This document shows, piece after piece, positions 36,563 through 49,500 of a stretch of DNA of 64,000 nucleotides. Within the stretch, counting starts at the first letter, position 1. Each line of letters begins with the position of its first letter. The notes under the pieces were generated by a model, which saw nothing but the letters and a program-made list of their open reading frames with translations, ran no database searches and had not been told where the DNA came from. Source of the DNA: an uncultured delta proteobacterium (lineage in GTDB: Bacteria > Desulfobacterota > Binatia > DP-6); NCBI GenBank assembly GCA_963815115.1, contig CAWFFN010000009.1, forward strand, positions 1,632,001 to 1,696,000, given 5' to 3'. A program made the position numbers and the translations under genes.

Positions 36563-36598
36563 GACGCGGCTCACGGCAATGCGTCAGGAGGTGCGTCG

Positions 36599-36694
36599 AT
36601 GAATCTCGCGGTCTGGTACCCGGCCATGTTCGTGCTCGGCGTGGTGGCGATGGGGATCTGCCTACTGTTCCTCGACGCCTGCGAAAGGATCTGA
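36599..36694 (+). CDS. 31-aa TM microprotein upstream of kdpF2
   Basis: MNLAVWYPAMFVLGVVAMGICLLFLDACERI; SD AGGAGGT. Confidence 0.8.
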   Translation: MNLAVWYPAMFVLGVVAMGICLLFLDACERI

Positions 36695-36796: not shown

Positions 36797-38614
36797 ATGT
36801 GGTCACTTCCGATCTCGATGCTGGTGGCGACGACGCTGCTGGCGATCCCGCTCAGCCGCTACCTCGCGTGGGTGATGGACGGCCGCTACCGGCCGCGCGG
36901 TCCGCTCCGGGCGATCGAACTCGCGCTCGATAGCGGGCCGCAGACCTGGAAGCAGTACACGGCGGCACTGCTGATCTTCAACACCGTACTGTTCGTGTTC
37001 GGCTTCCTGGTCCTGGCGCTCCAGCCGTGGATGCCGCTCAACGACCTGGGACGGGGCGCGCTGGCGCCGTCGACCATCTTTCACACCGTCGTGTCGTTCA
37101 TGACGAACACCGACGTGCAGCACTACTCGGGCGACCAGCACTTCTCGATCTTCAGCCAGATCGTCTTCGGGGTCGCGAACTTCTTCCTCTCGGCGTCGAT
37201 CGGATTCTGCGCGCTCACCGCCATCATCCGGGCCGTGCGCGGCGGCCCGACGGTCGGCAACTTCTTCGTCGACATGTGGCGGGTCGTGGCCTACATGTTC
37301 CTTCCCATCGCCTTCGTTCTGTCGCTCGTCTGGGTGCAGCAGGGGAGCCCGATGACCTTCAAGGGCGCGTATCAGGTCTCGACGCTCGAGGCCGGAGCGA
37401 TGGGCAGCGCGGACGACGGGACACCGAAGCAGCAGAACATCGCCGTCGGACCGCTCGGGGTCTTTCTCCCGATGAAGCAGCTCGGGACCAACGGCGGCGG
37501 CTTCTACGGCATGAACTCCGCGCACCCGTTCGAGAACCCGACGGTGACGACGAATGTCCTCTCATGTGTGGGGATGATGCTCTTCCCGTTCGCGCTGGTC
37601 CTCATGTTCGGGCGCATGCTGGGGCGACTGCGACATGCTTGGGTGATCTTCTCGGTGATGATGCTCTTCATGATCGGGACGATCGTCTGGACCGTCTACT
37701 TCGACACATTGCAGCCGAACCCCGCGCTGACGGCGCACCCGGCCGGCGCGACGTACGACCTGCCAGATCCGACGGCGCCCGGCGGGAAACAGACGATCAC
37801 GATCCCGTCGGTTGCGGGTCTCCCGGTCGATCAGCGTCTCGGCAACCTCGAGGGCAAGGAGCTGCGCTTCGGGACCGCCGCCGGCGCGACCTTCGCGGCG
37901 CTCACGGTCGACGTCACCGACGGGGCGGTCAACTGCGAGCACGACAGCCTCAACCCGCTCGCGGGATTCGGTCCCTACGTCGGCATGTGGCTCAACTGCT
38001 TCTTCGGGGGCAAGGGCGTCGGGATGATCAACATGCTGCTCTTCGTGATCATCGGCATCTTCGTCGCCGGTCAGATGGTGGGGCGGACCCCGGAGTATCT
38101 CGGCAAGAAGATCGGCGCCCGGGAGATGAAGCTCGCGATGATCGCGCTGCTCATCCATCCGATCATGATCCTGTGGCCCACGGGGCTCTTCGCGGCGACG
38201 AGCTGGGGGCTGAACGCCGTGAGCAATCCCGGCGCCCACGGGTTCTCTCAGATCCTGTACCAGTTCTCCTCCTCGTCGGCGAACAATGGCTCCGCATTCG
38301 ACGGCCTCGGCGTGGCATACGGGTTCGCCGCGAATCAGACGCCCGCGCCGTCGGCTGTGCCATTCGACATCGCCAGCGGACTCGTGATCGTCATCAGCCG
38401 CTTCATCCCGATCATCGCGCCCATCGCGATGGCCGCCAGCCTCGGGGCGAAGAAGTCCGCGCCGTTCGGTCTCGGGACGCTGCGTGACGACACGGGCACG
38501 TTCGCGGGGCTGCTCATCGGGACGATCGTGATCATCGGCGCCCTCCTCTTCCTGCCGGTGGCGGCGCTTGCCCCGTTCGCCGAGCACCTCGGCCCGATCC
38601 CGTTCGGCGGCTGA
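36797..38614 (+). CDS. kdpA: Divergent KdpA (operon 2) with acidic filter substitutions
   Basis: [27 protein letters not shown] and ANNGSA retained; first loop NTDVQ; third loop [15 protein letters not shown]. Confidence 0.93.
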
Positions 38615-38627
38615 AAGGAGCACCACG

Positions 38628-40808
38628 ATGAACCGGTCCAACGTTGCCATCCCCCTCGAGCAGGAGCCGCCGTCAGCGCCGGGGATGCCCCGGCCGGCGC
38701 GCCGGATCCGGCGCGCCGACCTGCTGGGGCCCGAGCTCGTCCGCGCGGCGCTGGTCCGCTCGGTCACGATGCTCCGACCCGACGTGCAATGGGCGAATCC
38801 CGTCATGTTCTGCGTCGAGGTCGGCGCCGTCCTGACGGCGATCTTCGCCGTCGCCGCGCTGCTCGGGCAGGGCGGACAGGCACCCGTCACCTACCTGGCC
38901 GCCCTCGACCTCTGGCTCTGGGCGACGGTTCTCTTCGCCAACTTCGCCACCGCGCTCGCCGAGGCGCGCGGCCAGGCGCAAGCCGAGTCGCTCCGCCGCA
39001 CGCGGCGCGACACGCCGGCGTACCGGCTGCTGAGGAACGGCTCGGTCGAGCCGACGACGTCGACCGAGCTCCGAGTGGGCGATCTCGTGGTCGTCGAGGC
39101 GAACCAGATCATCCCGGGCGACGGCGAGGTCGTCGAGGGAATCGCGTCGGTCGACGAGTCGGCGATCACGGGCGAGTCGGCGCCGGTCATCCGTGAGGCC
39201 GGCGGTGACCGGTCCGGGGTCACGGGCGGGACCATCGTGCGCTCGGACCGGATCGTCGTCCGCATCACCGCCCAGACGGGCGAGTCGTTCCTCGACCGCA
39301 TGATCGCGCTCGTCGAGGGCGCCATCCGACAGCGGACGCCGAACGAGATCGCGCTGACGCTCGTGCTGTCGGCCTTCACCCTGATCTTCCTCATCGTCGT
39401 CGTGCCGCTCTGGCCGATGGCGTGGAATGCGGAAAACTACATGACGGCGTATCTGGGGCGTCCGGAGCCGCTGCACAGCCTCGGGACGGACGTGCCGACG
39501 CTCGTGGCGCTCCTGGTCTGTCTCATCCCGACCACGATCGGCGCGCTGCTGGCCGCGATCGGCATCGCCGGCATGGACCGCGCGCTCCAGGCGAACATCC
39601 TCGCGAAGAGCGGCAAGGCCGTCGAGACGGCCGGTGACGTGGATACGGTCCTGCTCGACAAGACCGGGACGATCACGATCGGCAACCGGCACGCGACCGA
39701 GTTCGTTCCCGTCGGGGAATTCACCGCGCTCGAGGTCGGCGAGCTCGCGGCGGCCGCGTCCGTGGCCGACGAGACCCCCGAGGGGAAGTCGATCGTGCGG
39801 CTCTTCTTGAAGCAGGCCGCCACCGTGACGAAAGGGCCGGTCGACCTGGCTTCGGCTCCCCGCGACGCCGAGGTGGTCCCGTTCACCGCACAGACGCGGA
39901 TGAGCGGCGTCGACCTGCCCGACGGTCAGCGCCTCAGGAAAGGAGCGCCGGACGCGGTGATCGCACTCGTCCGTCGGCAGAACGGCACGGTGCCGCCCGG
40001 GATCGAGGACCACGTGCGCGCCGTCGCCACGCGTGGGGCAACACCGTTGCTCGTGGCGCAGGGCGCGCGCATCGTGGGCATCGTCGTCCTCGAGGACATC
40101 CTGAAGCCCGGCATCCAGGAGCGGTTCGCGCGGCTGCGGAAGATGGGGCTCCGCACCGTGATGATCACCGGCGACAATCCGCTCACCGCCGCGACGATCG
40201 CGGAGCAGGCAGGGGTCGACGACTTCATCGCCGAGGCGACGCCCGAGGCCAAGCTCGCCTACATCAGGAAGGAGCAGGCCGACGGCAAGCTGGTGGCGAT
40301 GATGGGCGACGGCACGAACGACGCGCCCGCGCTCGCGCAGGCGGACGTCGGCGTCGCCATGAACTCCGGCACGCAGGCCGCCAAGGAAGCCGGCAACATG
40401 GTCGACCTCGACAGCGACCCGACGAAGGTGATCGAGGTCGTCGAGATCGGCAAGCAGCTCCTGATGACCCGCGGGGCGCTCACGACGTTCTCGGTCGCGA
40501 ACGACGTCGCCAAGTATTTCGCGATCGTCCCGGCGCTCTTCGCCGGCACGCTGCCGTGGCTCAAGGCGATCGACGTCATGCACCTGCACTCGCCGACATC
40601 CGCGATCCTGTCGGCGGTGATCTTCAACGCACTCATCATCCCCCTTCTCATCCCGGTCGCGCTTCGTGGCGTGAGCTACCGGCCGCTGGGGGCGGACGCG
40701 CTCCTGCGGCGGAACCTCATGGTGTGGGGAGTCGGCGGCGTCGTCCTGCCGTTCATCGGCATCAAGCTGATCGACGTCGTGATGGTTGGCCTGCACCTCG
40801 TTGCGTGA
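38628..40808 (+). CDS. kdpB: K+-transporting ATPase subunit B (operon 2)
   Basis: TGES, CLIPTT, DKTGT, GDGTND and NDVAKYF; extra loop [12 protein letters not shown].. Confidence 0.95.
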
Positions 40809-40830: not shown

Positions 40831-41859
40831 ATGGTACGACTGATCTCGAAGAGCCTTGTCCTGCTGGCGGTCACCGTGGTCCTCTGCTGCGGCATCTATC
40901 CCCTCGCCGTGTGGGCCGTCGCGCAGGCCGTGTTCCCGTTCCAGGCGAACGGCAGCCTGCTCACCGGCCCCGACGGCACGGTCGTCGGCTCGAAGCTGAT
41001 CGCCCAGCCGTTCACCAAGGACGAGTACTTCCAGCCGCGGCCGTCGGCGCCGTCGTACGACGCCTCCGCCTCGGCGTCGTCCGCCCTGGCGCCGTCGAAC
41101 TACCTCCTCCGCGACCGCGTCGCGCGGGCGCTCGGGCCGATCGCCAGGTACAAGGAGGGCGCGAAGAGCGGGCAGCTCGTCGGGCCGGACGTGGAGGCAT
41201 GGTTCCGGGAGGATCGTTTCCAGGGCGAGCCGCATCTGGTCGCGCAGTGGGCCGACGCGCACAACGCGCTCGCGCAGGCGTGGGTGAAGGCAGACCCGGG
41301 GAATGCCGCCGCCGTCGATGCGTGGGCGAAGGAGCACGCCGACGCGGTCGCGGCATGGGTCGAGGCGAACCCGGCAACGCCGGTGCCCGCTGCGACCGAC
41401 CTCGCGGTCGTGTTCTTCGACGACTGGTCGGCGACGAAGCCCGGGACGTGGCCGTCGCTGGTGGAGCACGCGGGTCCGGACGGGACGACGGTGAAGGCCG
41501 TCGAGCCGGTGCACGAAGGCACGGAGATCCAGTCGGTCTTCTTCGAGATGTGGCGCGAGGACCATCCGGACGTCGCGCTCGTCGACGTGCCCGCCGACCT
41601 CGTGACCACCTCGGGATCCGGCCTCGATCCGGACATCACCCTCGAGAACGCGCGCTATCAGCTCGACCGGGTGGCAGCCGCCTGGGCGCAGGACACGAAG
41701 CGCGACCCGGACGCCGTCCGCAAGGAGATCGAAACCGTGCTCGCGGAGAAGGCACACGCGCCGCTGGGCGGGCTCTGGGGCGTCGACGTGGTCAACGTCC
41801 TCGAGCTCAACCTCGAGCTGCGCAGGCGGTACGGGGAGCCACCAGCGCCGGCGGCGTGA
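40831..41859 (+). CDS. kdpC: Long-form KdpC (operon 2) with large insertion
   Basis: QANGS, GSKLIAQPF, YFQPRPSA and DLVTTSGSGLDP; 342 aa versus about 190 aa for KdpC1 and KdpC3. Confidence 0.88.
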   Translation: MVRLISKSLVLLAVTVVLCCGIYPLAVWAVAQAVFPFQANGSLLTGPDGTVVGSKLIAQPFTKDEYFQPRPSAPSYDASASASSALAPSNYLLRDRVARALGPIARYKEGAKSGQLVGPDVEAWFREDRFQGEPHLVAQWADAHNALAQAWVKADPGNAAAVDAWAKEHADAVAAWVEANPATPVPAATDLAVVFFDDWSATKPGTWPSLVEHAGPDGTTVKAVEPVHEGTEIQSVFFEMWREDHPDVALVDVPADLVTTSGSGLDPDITLENARYQLDRVAAAWAQDTKRDPDAVRKEIETVLAEKAHAPLGGLWGVDVVNVLELNLELRRRYGEPPAPAA

Positions 41860-41907
41860 GCGGCGGCCGTGGACCATGCCGCGGTGGAGCATGATGACGT
41901 CCCGCGA

Positions 41908-42228
41908 ATGATCGGTTGGCTCGGCACCCTGGTCCTCGCCGCGACGCTGGAGATCGCCGGCGTCGCGGCGATGCGAAGCGGCCTCGTGCGCTCGGCGATC
42001 GCTCCGCTCCTGCTCGGCGGCTCGGCGCTCGTGGCGTACGGACTCGTCGTGAACTCGAATCGTCTGACGGACTTCGGCCGGTTGATGGGGACGTACATCG
42101 TCGTCTTCTTCCTGGTGAGCCAGCTGACGAGCGCCCTCGTCTTCGGCGAGCGGCCGGTGCCGAGCCTCGTGCTCGGCGGCGCGCTGATCGTCATCGGCGG
42201 TCTCGTGATCCAGCTCGGCGCGGCGTAG
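41908..42228 (+). CDS. Small 4-TM SMR/YnfA-like membrane protein
   Basis: LAATLE in TM1, FGRLMGTY and GGALIVIGG. Confidence 0.7.
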   Translation: MIGWLGTLVLAATLEIAGVAAMRSGLVRSAIAPLLLGGSALVAYGLVVNSNRLTDFGRLMGTYIVVFFLVSQLTSALVFGERPVPSLVLGGALIVIGGLVIQLGAA

Positions 42229-42279
42229 GCGCCGGAAGAGACGCGTGCGCGGTCTGGTTGCGCCCCGGCGGCGTTCGGG

Positions 42280-42308
42280 TTGACACCGATCGCTGGCGCG
42301 TCCAAAAA
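42280..42308 (+). promoter_or_regulatory. Candidate sigma-70 promoter for the mgtA operon
   Basis: Perfect TTGACA at 42280, 17-bp spacer, weak A-rich -10. Confidence 0.4.
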
Positions 42309-42309
42309 A

Positions 42310-42500
42310 GAGAAACGGAGTCCGTTCCAGTCCTTCGACTGATGGCGGTTCTCGGAGGTGTCCTTGGACAGTAGCGTTGATGGCAGTAGTGGCTGCGTAA
42401 GCAGTCACCCACGTCGGCCGGACGGCCGGCGGCTCGGACGCTGACACGCCATCAACGCCCCCGCCCGCCCGCGCCGTCCGGCGTTCGGCGGGTGCGCGTG
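42310..42500 (+). ncRNA. Structured 5' leader of mgtA (candidate riboswitch or attenuator with uORF)
   Basis: 11-bp stem 42374-84/42448-58 encloses a GNRA hairpin (GTGGCTGC-GTAA-GCAGTCAC) and GTCGGCC-GGAC-GGCCGGC; CAGTC-CTTC-GACTG; SD GGAGGT plus a 26-codon uORF at 42364-42444. Confidence 0.6.
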
Positions 42501-42674
42501 GCATCTCGTTCGCTCGCACTCCCCGCGACTTCTGGGTGATCGCGCGTTCCCGGCAGCGAGCCGGTCGTCGCTAGCCGGGGCAGCGCAGCACCGACACGCC
42601 CGCCCGGGCGTGGCGCGAGGGCGCTCGTCTGCGCGCCTTCGCGCCTCGGTTGCGCGCGGCGAAGGAGTGCGACC

Positions 42675-45389
42675 ATGGTCTCCAACAAGACGATCCCGAC
42701 CCGCGAGCGGACGCGCGTCCAGAAGTCACCGAAGTCACCGAGACGCCGCGAGCCGGCCCGCTGGATGCCGGGCGCTGCCTCGCCGCTTCTCCTGGAGGTG
42801 TCGGACGCGACGGTTCCGGCGGTGTTGCGTCTCCTCGAGGCGCACGAGAGCGGGCTGCCGGCATCCGACGTCGAGCCCCGCCTGGCCAGGTTCGGCCGCA
42901 ACGAGGTGGCCGCCGAGAAGCCGCCGGCATGGTACCGGATGCTGCTCCGGAACCTCCGGAACCCGTTCGTCGTGGTGCTGATGCTGCTGGGCGCCGTCTC
43001 CCTCACGACGGGCGACCTGCGGGCAGGCATCGTCGTCGGGGTGATGGTCGTCGTCAGCGTGCTCATGCGGTTCGTCTCCGAGTACCGCTCGACCCGCGCC
43101 GCCGAGGCCCTGCGGACCATGGTGCGGACGACGGCGACGGTGATCCGCCAGGTGGCCCGCGCGGAGTCCGACGGCACCATGCGGTTCCATGCCGAGAAGA
43201 CGGAGGTGCCGTTCGAGGCCCTCGTCCCCGGCGATCTGATCCACCTCTCGGCCGGCGATATGGTCCCCGCCGATCTCCGTCTGATCACCGCGAAGGACCT
43301 CTTCGTCAGCCAGTCTGCGCTGACCGGCGAGTCGATGCCGGTCGAGAAGACCGACACGGTCGCGGCCGCCGGCCGATCCCTCGATGCCCTGGGGCGACCC
43401 AACCTGTGCTTCATGGGCACGAGCGTCGTGAGCGGCTCGGGCCTGGGCCTCGCGGTGGCCACCGGGCGCCGCGCCTACTTCGGAGCGATGGCGTCCAGCG
43501 TGCTCGGCCGACGGAGCCTCACGAGCTTCGACCGAGGCGTCAACGCGGTGAGCTGGGTTCTGATCCGCTTCATGGCGGTCATGGTGCCCGTCGTCTTCCT
43601 CGTCAACGGGATGCTGAAGGGCGACTGGGTCGAGGCATTCCTGTTCGGGATCGCCGTCGCGGTGGGCCTCACCCCCGAGATGCTGCCGATGATCGTGACC
43701 GCGAACCTGGCGAAGGGCGCCTGGATGATAGCGAGGCACAAGTGCGTCGTGAAGCGGCTGAGCGCCATCCAGAACCTGGGCGCGATGGACGTCTGCTGCA
43801 CCGACAAGACCGGCACGCTGACCGAGGACAAGATCGTCCTCGAGCGCTACCTCGACCCCCACGGGCGAGACAGCAATCGCGTCCTCGAGCTGGCCTACCT
43901 GAACAGCTACTGGCAGACGGGGCTCAAGAACCTGCTCGATCGCGCGGTGCTCGAGCACGTGCAGCTGAACACGCAGCTCGACCTGCCGCGCGGTTACCGC
44001 AAGGTCGACGAGATCCCGTTCGACTTCGACCGCCGGCGGATGTCCGTGGTGGTCGCCCGGGCGGATGCGGCGGAGCACACGCTCATCTGCAAGGGCGCCG
44101 TCGAGGAACTCCTCAAGGTGTCCTCCCGCGTGGAGGAGGGCGGTCGGCTCGTTCCGCTGGCCGCAGAGAGCCGCCGCCGCGCCGAGAAGCTCGCCCGCCG
44201 GCTCAACATGGAGGGGCTGCGGGTGATCGCGGTCGGCTCTCGCGTCTTCGGTGCGCAGCGGACCGCGTACGGCGTCGCGGACGAGAGCGACCTCGTCCTG
44301 GCGGGGTTCATTGCCTTCCTCGACCCGCCGAAGCAGACCGCCGCACCGGCCATCCGGGCGCTCCGCGAGCACGGGGTCGCGGTGAAGGTCATCACCGGCG
44401 ACAACGACATCGTCACCCGGCGGGTCTGCCGGCTGGTCGGCCTGGAGATCGAGCGGCTGCTCCTGGGCCCCGAGGTCGAGATGCTGGACGACGACGACCT
44501 CGCGGCCGCGGCCGAGCAGGTGACCGTCTTCGCCAAGGTGGCCCCGATGCAGAAGGCCCGCATCATCCGGGCGCTGCAGCGCACCGGCCACACGGTCGGC
44601 TATCTCGGTGACGGCATCAACGACGCCGCAGCGCTGCGCGACGCCGACGTGGGCATCTCCGTCGACACCGCCGCGGACATCGCGAGGGAGTCGGCCGACA
44701 TCATCATGCTCGAGAAGAGCCTGCTGGTCCTCGCGGACGGGATCGCGAAGGGCCGCGAGGTGTACGGCAACATCATCAAGTACATCAAGATGACGGCCAG
44801 CAGTAACTTCGGGAACGTCTTCTCGGTGCTCGTCGCGAGCGCGCTTCTCCCGTTCCTGCCAATGCTGCCGATCCACCTGTTGATCCAGAACCTGCTCTAC
44901 GACTTCTCGCAGCTCGCGATCCCGTGGGACCGGATGGACGCGGAGTTCCTGGCACGGCCCCGGCGGTGGGACCCGAGCGGCATCGCGCGCTTCATGCTCT
45001 GCATGGGTCCGGTGTCGTCCGTCTTCGACGTCCTCACGTTCGTCGTGCTGTGGTTCGTCTTCCACGCGACCTCGCCGGCGCAGCAGTCCCTGTTTCAGTC
45101 GGGGTGGTTCGTCGAGGGCCTGCTGACGCAGACGCTCATCGTGCACGTCATCCGGACGCGGAAGGTGCCCTTCGTCGAGAGCCGGGCGTCGCTGCCCGTG
45201 ATGGTCACCACGGCCGCCGTCATGGCGGTCGGCGTCTGTGTTCCCTTCACGCCGTTCGGGCACGCCGTCGGGCTGGTGTCATTGCCCGGTGCCTACTTTC
45301 CGTGGCTCGGCGCGCTCCTTCTCGGGTACTGCCTGCTGGCCCAGGCGGTGAAGCGCTGGTACACGGCCCGATCCGACACCTGGCTGTGA
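42675..45389 (+). CDS. mgtA: Magnesium-translocating P-type ATPase
   Basis: LTGES, GLTPEMLP, DKTGTLT, YLNSYWQTGLKNLLD, PFDFDRRRMSV, SSNFGN and NLLYD. Confidence 0.96.
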   Translation: MVSNKTIPTRERTRVQKSPKSPRRREPARWMPGAASPLLLEVSDATVPAVLRLLEAHESGLPASDVEPRLARFGRNEVAAEKPPAWYRMLLRNLRNPFVVVLMLLGAVSLTTGDLRAGIVVGVMVVVSVLMRFVSEYRSTRAAEALRTMVRTTATVIRQVARAESDGTMRFHAEKTEVPFEALVPGDLIHLSAGDMVPADLRLITAKDLFVSQSALTGESMPVEKTDTVAAAGRSLDALGRPNLCFMGTSVVSGSGLGLAVATGRRAYFGAMASSVLGRRSLTSFDRGVNAVSWVLIRFMAVMVPVVFLVNGMLKGDWVEAFLFGIAVAVGLTPEMLPMIVTANLAKGAWMIARHKCVVKRLSAIQNLGAMDVCCTDKTGTLTEDKIVLERYLDPHGRDSNRVLELAYLNSYWQTGLKNLLDRAVLEHVQLNTQLDLPRGYRKVDEIPFDFDRRRMSVVVARADAAEHTLICKGAVEELLKVSSRVEEGGRLVPLAAESRRRAEKLARRLNMEGLRVIAVGSRVFGAQRTAYGVADESDLVLAGFIAFLDPPKQTAAPAIRALREHGVAVKVITGDNDIVTRRVCRLVGLEIERLLLGPEVEMLDDDDLAAAAEQVTVFAKVAPMQKARIIRALQRTGHTVGYLGDGINDAAALRDADVGISVDTAADIARESADIIMLEKSLLVLADGIAKGREVYGNIIKYIKMTASSNFGNVFSVLVASALLPFLPMLPIHLLIQNLLYDFSQLAIPWDRMDAEFLARPRRWDPSGIARFMLCMGPVSSVFDVLTFVVLWFVFHATSPAQQSLFQSGWFVEGLLTQTLIVHVIRTRKVPFVESRASLPVMVTTAAVMAVGVCVPFTPFGHAVGLVSLPGAYFPWLGALLLGYCLLAQAVKRWYTARSDTWL

Positions 45390-45417
45390 CGAGCAACATC
45401 CAGGAAAGGAGGAGCCC

Positions 45418-46131
45418 ATGGCCTGGCAGGTGTTCATGCTGCGGGTGGGCGTCGCGGCGCTCCTGGGCGCGGTGATCGGTCTCGAGCGCCAGGTTCGACA
45501 GCGCCTCGCGGGTCTCCGTACCAACGCCCTGGTCTCGATCGGCGCGGCGGCGTTCGTCGCCCTGGCGGCCGCCACGCCGGCCGAGAGCAGCCCCACCCGG
45601 GTGGCCGCCCAGGTGGTCTCGGGGATCGGGTTCCTTGGGGCGGGCGTGATCTTCCGCGAGGGGCTGACCGTACGCGGGTTCAACACCGCGGCGACCCTGT
45701 GGTGCTCCGGCGCCGTCGGCTCGCTCGCGGGATCCGGGATGTACGGCTCCGGGGGAATCACGGCCGTGCTGGCGTTGCTGGCGAATACGCTCCTGCGGCC
45801 GGTGGCGCGCCGCCTCGACCGGGACCCCACGGCCGCGACGGAGGTCGAGGTGCGCTATCGCATCGCCGCCACCTGCGTCGAGGCTGATGAGCCACACATC
45901 CGCAGCCTGCTGCTGCAGGGCGTGATGCACGCGGCCCTGGTCCTCCAGAGCATCCGGAGCACCACGCTCGTCGGCGAGGGGGGCGAGCCCGCGCGGGCCC
46001 GCGTGCGTGCGGAGGTCGTGACCGAGGGGCGGAGCGACCGCGCCATCGAGCAGGTCGTGGGGCGGCTCAGCCTCGAGCCTGGCGTGTCCGAGGCGTCGTG
46101 GCGGATCGCCGATCCGGCCGTCACCGATTGA
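45418..46131 (+). CDS. mgtC: MgtC/SapB family protein with ACT-like C-domain
   Basis: IGLERQ..AGLRTNALV, RVAAQVVSGIGFLGAG and NTAATLW. Confidence 0.93.
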   Translation: MAWQVFMLRVGVAALLGAVIGLERQVRQRLAGLRTNALVSIGAAAFVALAAATPAESSPTRVAAQVVSGIGFLGAGVIFREGLTVRGFNTAATLWCSGAVGSLAGSGMYGSGGITAVLALLANTLLRPVARRLDRDPTAATEVEVRYRIAATCVEADEPHIRSLLLQGVMHAALVLQSIRSTTLVGEGGEPARARVRAEVVTEGRSDRAIEQVVGRLSLEPGVSEASWRIADPAVTD

Positions 46132-46142
46132 TCGGAGGAGTC

Positions 46143-47267
46143 ATGCCGACCGCGCAAGACATCGAGCGGTACCGGAAGAACTGGCAGGACGAGATCGACA
46201 GCGCGGCGCGCTACCACGCCATGGCCGACGTCGAGGGCCGCGCGGGCGTGGCCACGGTCTATCGCGACCTGGCTGCCATGGAGGAGGAGCACGCCGCCTT
46301 CTGGGAGCAGCGGCTGACCGACGCCGGCGCTCCTGCCGGCCCGCGGCGGATCGGATGGCGTACACGCGTGCTGGTGTTGCTGGCGAGCCACTTCGGGGCC
46401 GGGCTGGTGCTGCCAACGATCGCCGCTGCCGAGCATCGCGACCGGAACGACTACCGCGGGCAGGCCGAGACGGGCGGCACGCGCATGGCGGCCCAGGAGC
46501 GCAACCATGCTCGCATTCTCGGGGCGCTGGTCTCGGGCACCTCAGGGGTCGACGGAGGATCCCTCGCCCAGATCGAGGGGCGGCACCGCAACGTGGGCGG
46601 CAACGCGGTGCGGGCGGCGGTGCTCGGAGCCAATGACGGGCTGTGCTCGAACCTCAGCCTGGTGACGGGTGTGGCCGGAGCGGCTCCGAGCGGACGCGCC
46701 GTGCTGCTCGCGGGCATCGCCGGTCTCGTCGCCGGGGCCTTCTCGATGGCCCTCGGGGAGTGGGTCAGTGTGACCAGTGCGCGCGAGCTGGCGGAGCGCG
46801 AGGTGGCGACTGAGCGGGACGAGATCGAGGCGACGCCCGAGGACGAGCGCGAGGAGCTACAGCTCATCTACGAAGCGAAAGGACTGGATCCGGCCGAGGC
46901 GGAACAGCTCAGTCGCGAGCTGCTGGCACGGCCGCGCGCGGCGCTCGAGGTCCTGACCCGCGAGGAGCTCGGCATCGACCCGGGCGACCTTGGCGGTTCG
47001 CCCTGGACGGCCGCCGGCACGTCATTCGTGCTCTTCGCGGTTGGCGCTGTCGTCCCGGTCCTGCCCCTCGTGTTCGTCAGCGGCTGGACCGCGGTCGGCG
47101 TCAGTGTCAGTGTCAGCGCGCTGGCGCTGTTTGGCATCGGGGCGGCGATCACCGTCCTGACGGGGCGCTCGGTGTGGCGCACCGGGCTGCGGCAGATGGT
47201 GCTCGGCCTGGCAGCCGCGGGAAGCACCTTCGTCATCGGCCGCCTTGTCGGCGTTGCGATCGGCTGA
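46143..47267 (+). CDS. VIT1/CCC1 transporter with N-terminal rubrerythrin/ferritin-like domain
   Basis: DEIDSA..Y..EEEHA..ERNH diiron-like motifs; AAVLGANDGL and SMALGEWVSV. Confidence 0.9.
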   Translation: MPTAQDIERYRKNWQDEIDSAARYHAMADVEGRAGVATVYRDLAAMEEEHAAFWEQRLTDAGAPAGPRRIGWRTRVLVLLASHFGAGLVLPTIAAAEHRDRNDYRGQAETGGTRMAAQERNHARILGALVSGTSGVDGGSLAQIEGRHRNVGGNAVRAAVLGANDGLCSNLSLVTGVAGAAPSGRAVLLAGIAGLVAGAFSMALGEWVSVTSARELAEREVATERDEIEATPEDEREELQLIYEAKGLDPAEAEQLSRELLARPRAALEVLTREELGIDPGDLGGSPWTAAGTSFVLFAVGAVVPVLPLVFVSGWTAVGVSVSVSALALFGIGAAITVLTGRSVWRTGLRQMVLGLAAAGSTFVIGRLVGVAIG

Positions 47268-47298
47268 TGGACGGACAGCGAGGTGTGTGGTCGTGGTA

Positions 47299-49500
47299 AT
47301 GACGCGTCGATCCGTAACACTCAGGGTCGCGCAGCTCGCGTGCCTGCTCTGCCAGGTGGCGAACGCGTCGGGCGCGTTCACGCTCCCCGCGTCGTCCTGG
47401 TTCCATCTGGTCGGCGGCCAAGTGCCCGAGGTCCGGCAGGTCGAGCCGCCGTTCCACGGCGACTACCAGTTGATCGCCGATACCGGGCACAACCGGGCGG
47501 GCGATCCGGCATCCGTCGTCTCAGCCGGCGCGGCGGTCGACATGCCTCCCGAGATGCCACCCCAGGCGTCCGCCAGCCAGAGTTTCGATTGGAGCGGATG
47601 GTACGCGGGCGGCCGTCTCGGCTTCGCTACCGGTTCTTCGAATTGGTCGGCGACGCCAGGCGGGGCGCACGCGCCGGCCCCGAGCGGCTCCCTCGGTCTT
47701 TCCAACCCGATCCACTTTTCCGATGGGACGGGAAGCTACGTCGGCGGATTGCAATTCGGCTACGACAAAGTGCTGCCCTCGCGCGTCCTCCTGGGCCTCG
47801 AGGCGGATGCCATGCTGCCCAACACGGTTTCCGGAACGCAGACGTTCTCCTCGCCGCTCGTCGGACGGGCGAGCTACAAGGACACCGTGCTGGCGTCGGG
47901 CAGCGTACGCGGCCGCCTGGGCTACGTGCTCGATCCCTGGTTGCTGTATGGAACGGGCGGGTTTGCCTGGGCCTACGACCAGCTGACGCGCAGCCGATTC
48001 GCCGGGCCCGCGACGGTCGAGAACGAGACGCTCTGGCGACCCGGCTGGACTCTGGGAGCCGGGGTCGGCGTCCCGATCGGCGGGCAATGGAGCGCAGCGC
48101 TCGAGTACCAGTACAGCAACTTCGGTAGCGGCCACGTGACCTTTCCCTCACCGGCGCAGACCTTCGCCTCCGACCTCACCCTGCACAGTGTCCAGCTGCG
48201 CCTCGACTACCACATCGGCGGCGATGCAGGGCTCGCGGATCTCGGCGCGGGACCGACGCCGCTGGACCTCGATTGGCTCGCGCTGCACGGGCAAACGACT
48301 TTCCTCGGCCAGTATGCGTTCCCGTTTCACGCGCCCTACCGCGGCCGGAACAGCCTCCGTCCGAATCAGGGCCGCGAGACCTGGGACGTCACGCTCTATG
48401 CCGGCATCCGGCTCTGGGAAGGCGCCGAGTTCTGGGTCAACCCGGAGATCGATCAGGGATTCGGGCTCAGCAACACCCTCGGCCTCGCCGGGTTCCCGAG
48501 CGGGGAAGCGTACAAGGTCGGCGCCCGTGCTCCCTATGTCCGTGTGCCCCGGTTCTTTCTCCGGCAGGTGGTCGAGCTCGGTGGCGGGACGAAGGAAGTC
48601 GCAGCCGGCATCAATCAGTTCCCCGCGACGACCACGGCCAACCGCGTGGTGCTGACCGTGGGCAAGTTCGGCGTCCCCGACATCTTCGATGCCAATCGGT
48701 TCGCGCACGATCCGAGGCTCGACTTCATGAACTGGGCGCTCGTCGACACCGGGTCGTTCGACTACGCCGCCGACGCGTGGGGTTACACCTACGGTGCAGC
48801 GGCGGAGTGGTATCAAGGTCCGTGGACGGTGCGCGGCGGCGGTTTCGATCTGTCGATCGTGCCGAACAGCACGACACTCGATCCCTCGTTCGGTCAGTTC
48901 CAGCTCGTCGGAGAGATCGAGCGCCGGTTCGAGATCTGGAGCGAGCCGGGCAAGGTCACCGTCATGCCCTGGCTCAGCCGCGGCCGCATGGGCACCTACA
49001 CGGCCGCCGTCCGATTGGCCGAGCTCACCGGGCAGCCGGCGGACATCGCCGCCGTCCGCCGCTACAGGAGCCGCTGGGGGCTGGCCGCGAACCTCGAGCA
49101 GCAGGTGACGCCCGACTGGGGGCTGTTTCTCCGAACCGGATTCGCCAGCCCCAACGTGGAGCCCTACGAGTTCACCGACATCGACCGGACGGTGGCGGTC
49201 GGTGCCCAGCTCACCGGCCGCCGGTGGCAACGTCCCGACGACACCGTTGGCTTTGCCGGGATCCTCAACGACATCTCGGGGCGACACGAGGCGTTCCTGA
49301 ACGCGGGCGGTCTCGGCATCCTGATCGGAGACGGCCGATTGCCGCACCCTGGTCTCGAGCAGATCCTCGAGACCTACTACTCGATCGCCCTCAGGGCCTG
49401 GCGGATCACCTTCGACTATCAGTTCTTCAACAATCCCGCCTACAACCGTGACCGTGGCCCGGTGTCGGTGCTGGGACTTCGGCTGCACGGTCAGTTCTGA
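47299..49500 (+). CDS. Outer-membrane porin: OMP beta-barrel fused to OprB-like barrel (MnoP-like high-affinity Mn2+ porin)
   Basis: FDWSGWYAGG..GSVRGRLGY N-domain; GQTT..PFHAPY.G.NSL and NPEIDQGFGLS..AGFPSGEAYKVG; terminal Phe. Confidence 0.82.
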   Translation: MTRRSVTLRVAQLACLLCQVANASGAFTLPASSWFHLVGGQVPEVRQVEPPFHGDYQLIADTGHNRAGDPASVVSAGAAVDMPPEMPPQASASQSFDWSGWYAGGRLGFATGSSNWSATPGGAHAPAPSGSLGLSNPIHFSDGTGSYVGGLQFGYDKVLPSRVLLGLEADAMLPNTVSGTQTFSSPLVGRASYKDTVLASGSVRGRLGYVLDPWLLYGTGGFAWAYDQLTRSRFAGPATVENETLWRPGWTLGAGVGVPIGGQWSAALEYQYSNFGSGHVTFPSPAQTFASDLTLHSVQLRLDYHIGGDAGLADLGAGPTPLDLDWLALHGQTTFLGQYAFPFHAPYRGRNSLRPNQGRETWDVTLYAGIRLWEGAEFWVNPEIDQGFGLSNTLGLAGFPSGEAYKVGARAPYVRVPRFFLRQVVELGGGTKEVAAGINQFPATTTANRVVLTVGKFGVPDIFDANRFAHDPRLDFMNWALVDTGSFDYAADAWGYTYGAAAEWYQGPWTVRGGGFDLSIVPNSTTLDPSFGQFQLVGEIERRFEIWSEPGKVTVMPWLSRGRMGTYTAAVRLAELTGQPADIAAVRRYRSRWGLAANLEQQVTPDWGLFLRTGFASPNVEPYEFTDIDRTVAVGAQLTGRRWQRPDDTVGFAGILNDISGRHEAFLNAGGLGILIGDGRLPHPGLEQILETYYSIALRAWRITFDYQFFNNPAYNRDRGPVSVLGLRLHGQF

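Follow-up and report, generated by a model that had tools for sequence, protein, structure and literature searches.

The 64,000-nt stretch of DNA analysed here (the window; a contig piece of 70% G+C, G000:C9) comes from an uncultured member of the Binatia and carries a gene for an MgtA-type Mg2+ pump with a long leader in front of it. A reading made from the letters alone (the sequence-only reading) had described this region as a multi-stem leader with an open reading frame lying upstream (a uORF), ahead of mgtA and mgtC, and had proposed a Mg2+-sensing element of a class other than those known. The analysis reported here confirms what was described and supports the proposal in part: the leader is real, structured and under selection, its uORF is probably regulatory, it matches no known RNA family, and it is confined to one genus. 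Coordinates are whole-window positions throughout, and the leader core is 42350-42674 (325 nt). The genes around it are the following.

36797-38614, plus strand: kdpA
38568-40808, plus strand: kdpB
40911-41894, plus strand: open reading frame (ORF) without a family match
41869-42228, plus strand: weak YnfA-like ORF
42229-42674: gap of 446 nt before mgtA
42661-42677, plus strand: ribosome-binding site of mgtA, GAAGGAG, then ATG at 42675
42675-45389, plus strand: mgtA, TIGR01524 equivalog (1288 bits against a cut-off of 611)
45418-46131, plus strand: mgtC (Pfam/NCBIfam)
46098/46143-47267, plus strand: rubrerythrin-like+VIT1 gene (Pfam/NCBIfam)
47245-49500, plus strand: OprB-family porin gene (Pfam/NCBIfam)

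The family assignments confirm that mgtA and mgtC lie downstream of the leader. Members of the VIT1 family are Fe/Mn exporters. Within and just before the gap, the leader shows these features, the folds being predicted.

42276-42305, plus strand: promoter-like block with TTGACA (42280-85), no good -10 hexamer
42314-26, plus strand: 5' hairpin AACGG-AGT-CCGTT, outside the conserved core (two-hairpin region 42312-42341)
42328-41, plus strand: 5' hairpin CAGTC-CTTC-GACTG, outside the conserved core
42320-24 and 42435-39, plus strand: GTCCG and CGGAC, a possible pairing read in the sequence
42354-42359, plus strand: Shine-Dalgarno (SD) sequence GGAGGT of the uORF, 5 nt 5' of TTG at 42364
42364-42444, plus strand: uORF with TTG start, 26 codons and TGA (42442-44), MDSSVDGSSGCVSSHPRRPDGRRLGR
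42374-42458, plus strand: domain 1, a predicted four-way junction
42374-84/42448-58, plus strand: P1 of domain 1, a perfect 11-bp stem
42389-96/42401-08, plus strand: P2 of domain 1, inside P1, GUAA loop
42412-19/42424-31, plus strand: P3 of domain 1, inside P1, GGAC loop
42434-37/42441-44, plus strand: P4 of domain 1
42446-42494, plus strand: C-rich tract right after the uORF stop, with hairpin P5
42462-69/42487-94 and 42471-75/42480-84, plus strand: P5
42498-42673, plus strand: domain 2, predicted
42498-42517/42656-73, plus strand: outer helix of domain 2, pairing with the mgtA SD
42524-30/42648-54, plus strand: closing helix of domain 2
42535-92, 42596-42611 and 42612-45, plus strand: hairpins of domain 2

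Every motif, stem, SD, start codon and reading frame that the sequence-only reading had described was found in its place; the minimum-energy fold holds all the stems, and the 26-codon frame passes through P1-P4. The listing of ORFs begins this frame at a GTG two codons upstream of the TTG. A consensus scan of the leader region found no sigma-70 site, and an extracytoplasmic-function-type promoter reading of TTGACAC...CGTCC would not fit the consensus spacing. On the minus strand, the first 5' hairpin and an A-run at 42328-42312 make the sole terminator-like site of the region (seven pairs, then TCTTTTTT), and no minus-strand gene leads into it. An 8-nt tandem repeat, CGGCCGGA in 3.2 copies at 42415-42440, forms P3/P4. 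Five GGA triplets lie in 42310-42450 (counted by eye), about twice the expectation, which bears on a CsrA-type reading.

The stability of the predicted fold was set against shuffles and against other pieces of the window. For 42305-42680 the minimum energy is -202.8 kcal/mol (z = -3.7), a value reached by none of 100 shuffles. The domain 1 region, 42352-42497 (-80.6 kcal/mol), ranks among the most stable 0.9% of 781 windows of 146 nt and matched GC content from the same 64 kb, and among the most stable 4% of all 1597 windows. The 11-bp stem was rejected as a stand-alone signal, since the 64 kb holds 62 pairs of perfect 11-nt inverted repeats within 100 nt of each other. On both strands together (128 kb), GGAGG ahead of a start codon turns up 35 times, which makes the expectation for the leader about 0.1. 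Taken singly the features of the leader are not rare; combined, they exceed chance.

Conservation was judged in the first place against a congener, genome G001, which has a 7-kb block (42347-49500) in common with the window at 90-95% identity, set in a different neighbourhood: a second mgtA, 68% identical in nucleotides, lies directly upstream, and the downstream flank maps to three other places in the window's own genome (G000). Near-identity begins at 42350-52, 2-4 nt 5' of the uORF SD. Over the leader only 6 of 325 sites differ, as against 127 of 2715 sites in mgtA as a whole (P = 0.014) and 88 of its 905 third codon positions (P = 6e-7). The leader is conserved well below the synonymous-site rate. 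On the 5' side of the core, G001 has about 115 extra nt and different hairpins; the TTGACA block recurs there, 26 of 30 positions being identical, about 190 nt 5' of the conserved core (alignment score 40, against a mean of 18.9 and a maximum of 32 in 200 shuffles).

Low divergence could also mean that the segment has recently been exchanged and has no function, the folding being a by-product of 72% G+C. The rearranged contexts of the block, the abundance of 11-nt inverted repeats and the roughly 1% of same-GC windows that fold equally well all fit such an account. Recent exchange should, however, have lowered the divergence of the adjacent coding sequence as well, yet divergence from G001 climbs to 8-9 per 100 nt immediately past 42647, which argues against exchange as the cause. 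This account is also at odds with the variants described below, in which three lineages each carry changes that keep the plus-strand and not the minus-strand fold, and we regard it as very improbable.

Some features of the block in G001 are recorded here for completeness. In the orthologous mgtA (L113, G001:C7:10000-29000 compared with window 42675-46131) one nucleotide is inserted after codon 4 and 28 nt at 43369, mgtC is without about 500 nt (45605-46130), and the second, upstream mgtA also seems to be split into two ORFs; these indels could reflect decay of a redundant copy or assembly errors. In the window itself, a GGAGG-led start at 46143 would give the rubrerythrin-like+VIT1 gene 374 aa, and its apparent 34-nt overlap with mgtC (start 46098) would vanish. 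Just 5' of kdpA (36797), a 31-codon GGAGG-led ORF starts at 36599 (region 36587-36694), a location that fits a kdpF-like small subunit gene.

Part of the stretch is present in 20 soil runs, none of which contains more than one-third of its words. Natural variants were drawn from four of them (X1, X3, X5 and X19), and stretches without coverage were left unused. X1 and X3 represent one lineage (42440 G>A, 42451 A>G, 42461 C>G and 42582 A>G; X3 also 42651 T>C) and X5 a separate one (an additional G after 42415, 42470 C>A and ten events in 42509-42651); X1, X3 and X5 all have 42322 C>T and 42326 T>C in the first 5' hairpin. X19 is a 151-nt contig of an RNA library, a soil metatranscriptome, that spans 42363-42513 with 42470 C>A and attests presence only; it is the sole near-identical contig of that library on 42150-43100, the three other pieces listed being 33-42 nt long with 3-6 mismatches.

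The soil contigs narrow the conserved element. X3 has 5 events in 325 leader positions and 16 in 222 flanking positions (P = 0.001). For the whole leader of X5 the figures are 12 of 325 and 19 of 341, which is not significant, and for its domain 1 alone 2 of 146 (P = 0.05). Both contigs retain the G000 arrangement of promoter-like block and core, and 42277-42307 is invariant in both, with changes on either side. The proposed multi-stem structure therefore has to be trimmed: its core stems are conserved, but the region 5' of 42350 that holds the first two hairpins and GTCCG at 42320 has other or divergent sequence in G001 and changes in the soil contigs as fast as the flanks do. These hairpins and the suggested pairing of GTCCG with CGGAC lie outside the conserved element.

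The variants were then rebuilt by coordinate and folded, and compared with random sets of changes matched for number and type. The predicted energies, in kcal/mol, are these.

Domain 1: G000 -80.6, G001 -80.6, X3 -86.0, X5 -80.7
Whole core, plus strand: G000 -187.6, G001 -192.2, X3 -195.9, X5 -189.6
Whole core, minus strand: G000 -179.9, G001 -173.9, X3 -176.8, X5 -176.6

Plus-strand stability is thus kept or raised in the natural variants and the minus-strand fold is weakened. Matched random sets reached the observed plus-strand stability in 4 of 250 cases for G001, in none of 250 for X3 and in 4 of 250 for X5, that is in 0-1.6%; a single one of 600 random triple substitutions was as stable as domain 1 of X3. 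The X5 hairpin 42525-42600, with five substitutions and three deleted nucleotides, still reaches -37.1, where matched random sets average -28.0 and 1% of 1000 get as far. The changes in G001 break no pair, three being in unpaired positions and three being G-U/G-C exchanges. In domain 2, 42547 T>C, 42634 C>T and 42651 T>C each swap a G-U for a G-C pair or the reverse. In X1 and X3, 42451 A>G turns a U-A pair of P1 into U-G, a pairing that holds only in the plus-strand RNA, and 42461 C>G extends P5; 42470 C>A of X5 and X19 removes the P5 bulge. One outer-helix pair of domain 2 is broken in X5 by 42509 T>C. The fold of domain 1 is kept in G001 and X3, and in X5 P1 and P2 are kept and P3/P4 refold at equal predicted energy. 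Some changes are common to several lineages, so the tests do not count as independent, and the folds on which they are based are predicted ones; on that footing, selection on plus-strand RNA structure appears the most economical reading.

The uORF, too, is conserved. Its SD GGAGGT is invariant in G001, X1, X3 and X5, as is its start codon, and the SD with codons 1-17 (42350-42414) shows no change in any lineage where 4.6 would be expected at the leader's own rate (P = 0.01). The strong SD stands at the right spacing before the UUG start, and the onset of near-identity with G001 immediately 5' of this SD likewise speaks for the frame. The 5' arm of P1 starts 10 nt past the start codon and the stop codon lies 3 nt 5' of the 3' arm of P1, which places an SD-led short frame within the first stem-loop of the leader, as in leaders of the MgtL/CorL type. 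From these features we infer that the uORF is translated, and it is probably regulatory.

Its codons are unusual for this DNA. The sequence-only reading had remarked that AGT codons are plentiful in the uORF and rare around it, and the counts agree: 4 of the 6 serine codons of the uORF are AGT, compared with 8 of 201 in six window genes (P = 3.5e-5). All six serine codons lie among the first 14 and form three in-frame AGY-AGY pairs 15 nt apart (42370, 42385 and 42400); the pattern AGYAGY-N9-AGYAGY occurs twice in the window, both times in the uORF, with 0.02 expected. A triple AGYAGY pattern was tried as a genome-wide signal and dropped. It matches 66 of 401 class genomes (a tally that includes one unpublished genome, G185, on which no claim is based), mostly in AGCAGC coding repeats, and the reversed control is equally frequent; in G000 there is one match against 3+1 for the reversed control.

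A run of tandem pairs with a five-codon period, four of the codons being the rare AGT, recalls the run-of-codon leader peptides of amino-acid operons, and the uORF might accordingly be thought to sense charged tRNA-Ser(GCU) as a serine-codon attenuator. Of the classical marks of such attenuators, however, the codon pairs are the only one present. No plus-strand terminator-like site, and no intrinsic terminator with a U-tract, was found in the leader region; the operon is one of transporters, with no link to serine and no cognate biosynthetic genes. The same letters double as junction linkers and as an arm of P2, and the genome-wide tally of the pattern points the same way. We consider serine attenuation very unlikely.

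Searches for relatives of the leader were made at several levels. With cmscan against the 4227 families of Rfam 15, no family reached its gathering score anywhere in the window, and at E <= 10 the region 42200-42720 gave only two chance-level matches to unrelated families and no metal riboswitch. The M-box (RF00380, gathering score 44 bits) was absent from the whole 100%-complete genome G000, controls from B. subtilis and L. lactis being positive, so the earlier statement that M-box landmarks are lacking stands. The enterobacterial mgtA leader (Rfam family Mg_sensor) gave no covariance-model match when all 4227 families were run. Upstream of the 20 loci with the nearest mgtA relatives, the only Rfam families found were two tRNAs. 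The cmscan check that the sequence-only reading had proposed therefore returned no characterised family.

The pump itself is patchily distributed: at E <= 1e-100, 12 of the 41 relatives have it, and within the genus 2 of the 5 genomes do. The best MgtA identity outside the genus is 59% among 80 genome loci and 66% among 80 metagenome loci. Relatives of mgtA were collected from 91 + 80 other loci (171 in all), alongside 25 genomes of the family and 151 of the class. Against the 91 + 80 loci the leader gave no nhmmer match, and blastn found only matches of 15-36 nt with E >= 0.03. A covariance model of domain 1, R1, found only the leader itself in 93 + 80 sources; the next match (E = 0.31) lies inside the window's kdpB ORF, followed by two in mgtA loci (0.73 and 2.1), and none of the 171 other mgtA loci matched at E <= 0.3. 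In the 151 class genomes R1 found the leader in two, G000 and G001. Three further weak matches there (23-26 bits, E 0.018-0.095) all overlap ORFs of at least 150 aa and were taken as chance. Likewise taken as chance were BLAST matches of the leader in 12 of the 41 relatives, which are GC-rich, 25-84 nt long (E 2e-7 to 8e-4) and in no case beside a long match. The leader was thus found in 2 of the 25 family genomes, G000 and G001 only, both from a genus of 5 genomes, and in soil contigs of nearly identical sequence. A literature search on riboswitch candidates and mgtA returned no title concerning this bacterial group, and one on Binatia plus magnesium returned no papers.

The idea of an element of another class is not supported by this survey, in which no relatives were found before the 171 mgtA loci or in the other genomes of the family and class examined. 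The sequence-only reading had itself said that a lack of homologs or covariation upstream of metal-transport genes would speak against it; neither was found, none of the 117 pairs of the consensus fold having changes on both sides. What has been found is a genus-level element and not a demonstrated riboswitch class. A narrower version, in which domain 1, with or without domain 2, binds metal directly, so that Mg2+ or another cation would compact the junction and the uORF would be incidental or a mere reporter of the fold, has several points in its favour: a junction of several helices that includes a GNRA (GUAA) loop and linkers rich in A (AGUA, present twice), structure-preserving variation, a genome without an M-box, and a uORF region conserved at the nucleotide rather than the codon level, with third-position G+C (GC3) unlike that of the genes and a tolerated frameshifting insertion in X5. 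The absence of any Rfam match, metal riboswitches included, tells against it, as does the lack of relatives before the other transporter genes examined, whereas validated ion riboswitches are widespread. Nor can an expression platform be identified, no terminator and no unusual occlusion of an SD having been found, and it would be left unexplained why the uORF keeps its SD and start codon so perfectly. Direct metal binding by the leader seems to us improbable, though to be reckoned with.

Likenesses to known systems can be set out more exactly. The enterobacterial mgtA/mgtL leader is also long and also precedes a P-type ATPase of the MgtA type; both have a short SD-led uORF in a large stem-loop, an adjoining pyrimidine-rich tract and rho in the genome (mechanism as described in PMC11552253). 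It differs in having stem-loops A/B versus C, where the leader here has a four-way junction for which no alternative fold was found, and there is neither a covariance-model nor a sequence match. In the accounts of MgtL- and CorL-type leaders given in PMC11552253 and 10.1101/2021.02.02.429294, it is proline and acidic residues that make elongation on the uORF sensitive to Mg2+; the uORF described here has 26 codons, is rich in Ser, Gly and Arg, and is not proline- or acid-rich. The corL frame of corA (Salmonella, E. coli) resembles it more closely in some respects, with a UUG start in the first stem-loop, few prolines and only the N-terminal part of the peptide conserved (PMC11552253). The frame described here likewise starts with UUG, shows no change in codons 1-17 and has a tail that X5 does not keep, although corL controls another gene family and shares no sequence relation. 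The M-box (ykoK, RF00380) is also a multi-helix RNA before Mg2+ transporter genes, but it matches nowhere in the window or genome, and the terminator platform is missing here. Lastly, the yybP-ykoY Mn2+ riboswitch, a junction-type metal riboswitch, precedes a P-type ATPase called 'mgtA' in Streptococcus pneumoniae (PMC6649816). The operon here also includes a VIT1-family gene, but there is no Rfam match even at E <= 10, and the pump is of the Mg2+ type at equivalog level (TIGR01524, as listed).

Other mgtA genes were found to have leader features of their own. Frames beginning with acidic residues, M[DE][DEP][DEGP], occur in 9 of 148 mgtA upstream regions in the sense direction and in 1 of 148 antisense, examples being L021 (MDDDGSGP...), L158 (MDDGGSS...) and L136 (MDEGPAS...). 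L021, from a genome of the same family as the window (G017), has an SD-led GTG uORF, MDDDGSGPRLVRRDGRGVAP, about 170 nt before the mgtA start; a predicted hairpin encloses its SD and start, and a promoter-like site, GGGTTGACAC, lies upstream of them. These frames are like the present one in being SD-led, in beginning with Met-Asp and in lying about a hundred nucleotides or more before mgtA, but the peptide here misfits the M[DE][DEP][DEGP] pattern and no common RNA structure was found. The L158 frame has GAT GGC (GGT) AGT AGT in frame, as here; the similarity is not significant (alignment score 24 against 21.9 +/- 3.7 in shuffles). Ten other upstream regions (L046, L145, L156, L058, L062, L050, L061, L135, L124 and L137) carry four direct TCTAA(T/A/C) repeats with a period of about 11 nt, often followed by a GC-rich hairpin. 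They are 84-90% conserved across distant genomes, with Bacteroidota-like titles where named, and look like a response-regulator operator or a leader element. A conserved 38-codon uORF, MDVYPSRNVDIR..., lies about 500 nt before mgtA in L151, L072 and L066, where the upstream context is identical; two of the three carry Rhodanobacter/Proteobacteria titles.

The reading that we favour, and hold as a serious though tentative possibility, is that the mgtA-mgtC-VIT1-oprB operon has in 42350-42674 a cis-acting mRNA leader, folded into two multi-helix domains, in which translation of the uORF competes with the four-way-junction fold. Counted in its favour are also the SD-led uORF of L021 and the excess of acidic-start frames on the sense strand before other mgtA genes. 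A ribosome that starts at the SD-led UUG would have to melt domain 1 and would halt at the stop codon, just short of the 3' arm of P1 and beside the C-rich tract; whichever of the two prevails, the translating of the uORF or the folding of domain 1, could then decide whether RNA polymerase and ribosomes get as far as mgtA. Since no intrinsic terminator was found on the plus strand and rho is present in the genome (704 bits), Rho-dependent premature termination would be the likely route. Also in favour of this route, the C/G ratio in 78-nt windows peaks around 42400-42480 at 1.5-1.7, in the 97th-99th percentile of the window. The signal may be cytoplasmic Mg2+, to which the gene context points, or translation capacity, and the three slowly decoded AGY serine codon pairs may act as a timing device. 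The competition between uORF and domain 1 and its read-out by Rho are proposed by analogy with mgtA and corA and are not a result of the analysis.

Several findings weigh against this proposal. The uORF has none of the marks of MgtL, with Asp only at positions 2, 6 and 20, Pro only at 16 and 19, and no acidic run. Its GC3 is 0.59, compared with 0.84-0.94 in the genes, and the variant lineages carry no synonymous and one non-synonymous change in it (42440 G>A), so that a constraint on the RNA fits better than one on the coding frame. In X5 the frame is shifted by the additional G, which falls inside the tandem repeat (one contig, depth 5), and reads on to a stop at 42537-39, so that this lineage does not keep the placing of the stop with respect to P1. 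The absence of two-sided changes, with only four near-identical lineages available, deprives the fold of covariation. The C-rich tract is largely paired in P5, and its C/G ratio is modest. Folding with a ribosome footprint at each of four positions yielded no defined alternative helix or switch: the unpaired fraction of the C-tract rises from 0.26 to 0.60, the mgtA SD is equally buried under all footprints (0.16-0.20), and the global folds depend on distant pairing with the 5' end, which is not conserved. Without constraint the mgtA SD has a 0.20 probability of being unpaired. For 17 other SD-led starts of the window the values range from 0.03 to 0.92, with a median of 0.26; burial of this kind is ordinary for the genome, and occlusion of the SD was dropped as evidence for a translational switch.

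Several results fit a structured leader that senses no ion and serves instead in stabilisation or processing of the mRNA, as a platform for a protein or small RNA, or in plain translational tuning through the uORF. Selection for folding stability is all that has actually been shown, the predicted burial of the SD is ordinary, constrained folding shows no switch, and the element travels with its 7-kb gene block in different neighbourhoods. On the other side, leaders of at least 325 nt with an SD-led uORF before MgtA-type pumps are regulatory in every case studied (PMC11552253), and conservation is tighter than simple stability elements usually need. Such a leader without ion sensing is the less probable outcome in our judgement, yet one to be reckoned with. 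The competition between uORF translation and the fold of domain 1 may also be taken a step further, as a lineage-specific, ribosome-read sensor of Mg2+ or translation capacity that would be new in design, in which three evenly spaced pairs of wobble-decoded AGU/AGC serine codons would pace the ribosome through a Mg2+-dependent four-way junction and gate the access of Rho without a proline-rich or acidic peptide. This is a speculative extension, and rather improbable as a whole.

Leader-RNA control of Mg2+ pumps is understood in few model bacteria, by way of the M-box in Firmicutes and of mgtL and corL in enterics. The practical value of the present leader is limited, with one genus, too few variants for covariation and no cultured host; its 325-nt core is small enough for in vitro probing and heterologous reporters. 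The leader would be an independent solution to the control of a Mg2+ pump in an uncultured soil group of phylum level. Were the wobble-codon scheme true, RNA folding and elongation speed would be read jointly to gate the access of Rho to the mgtA-mgtC transcript.

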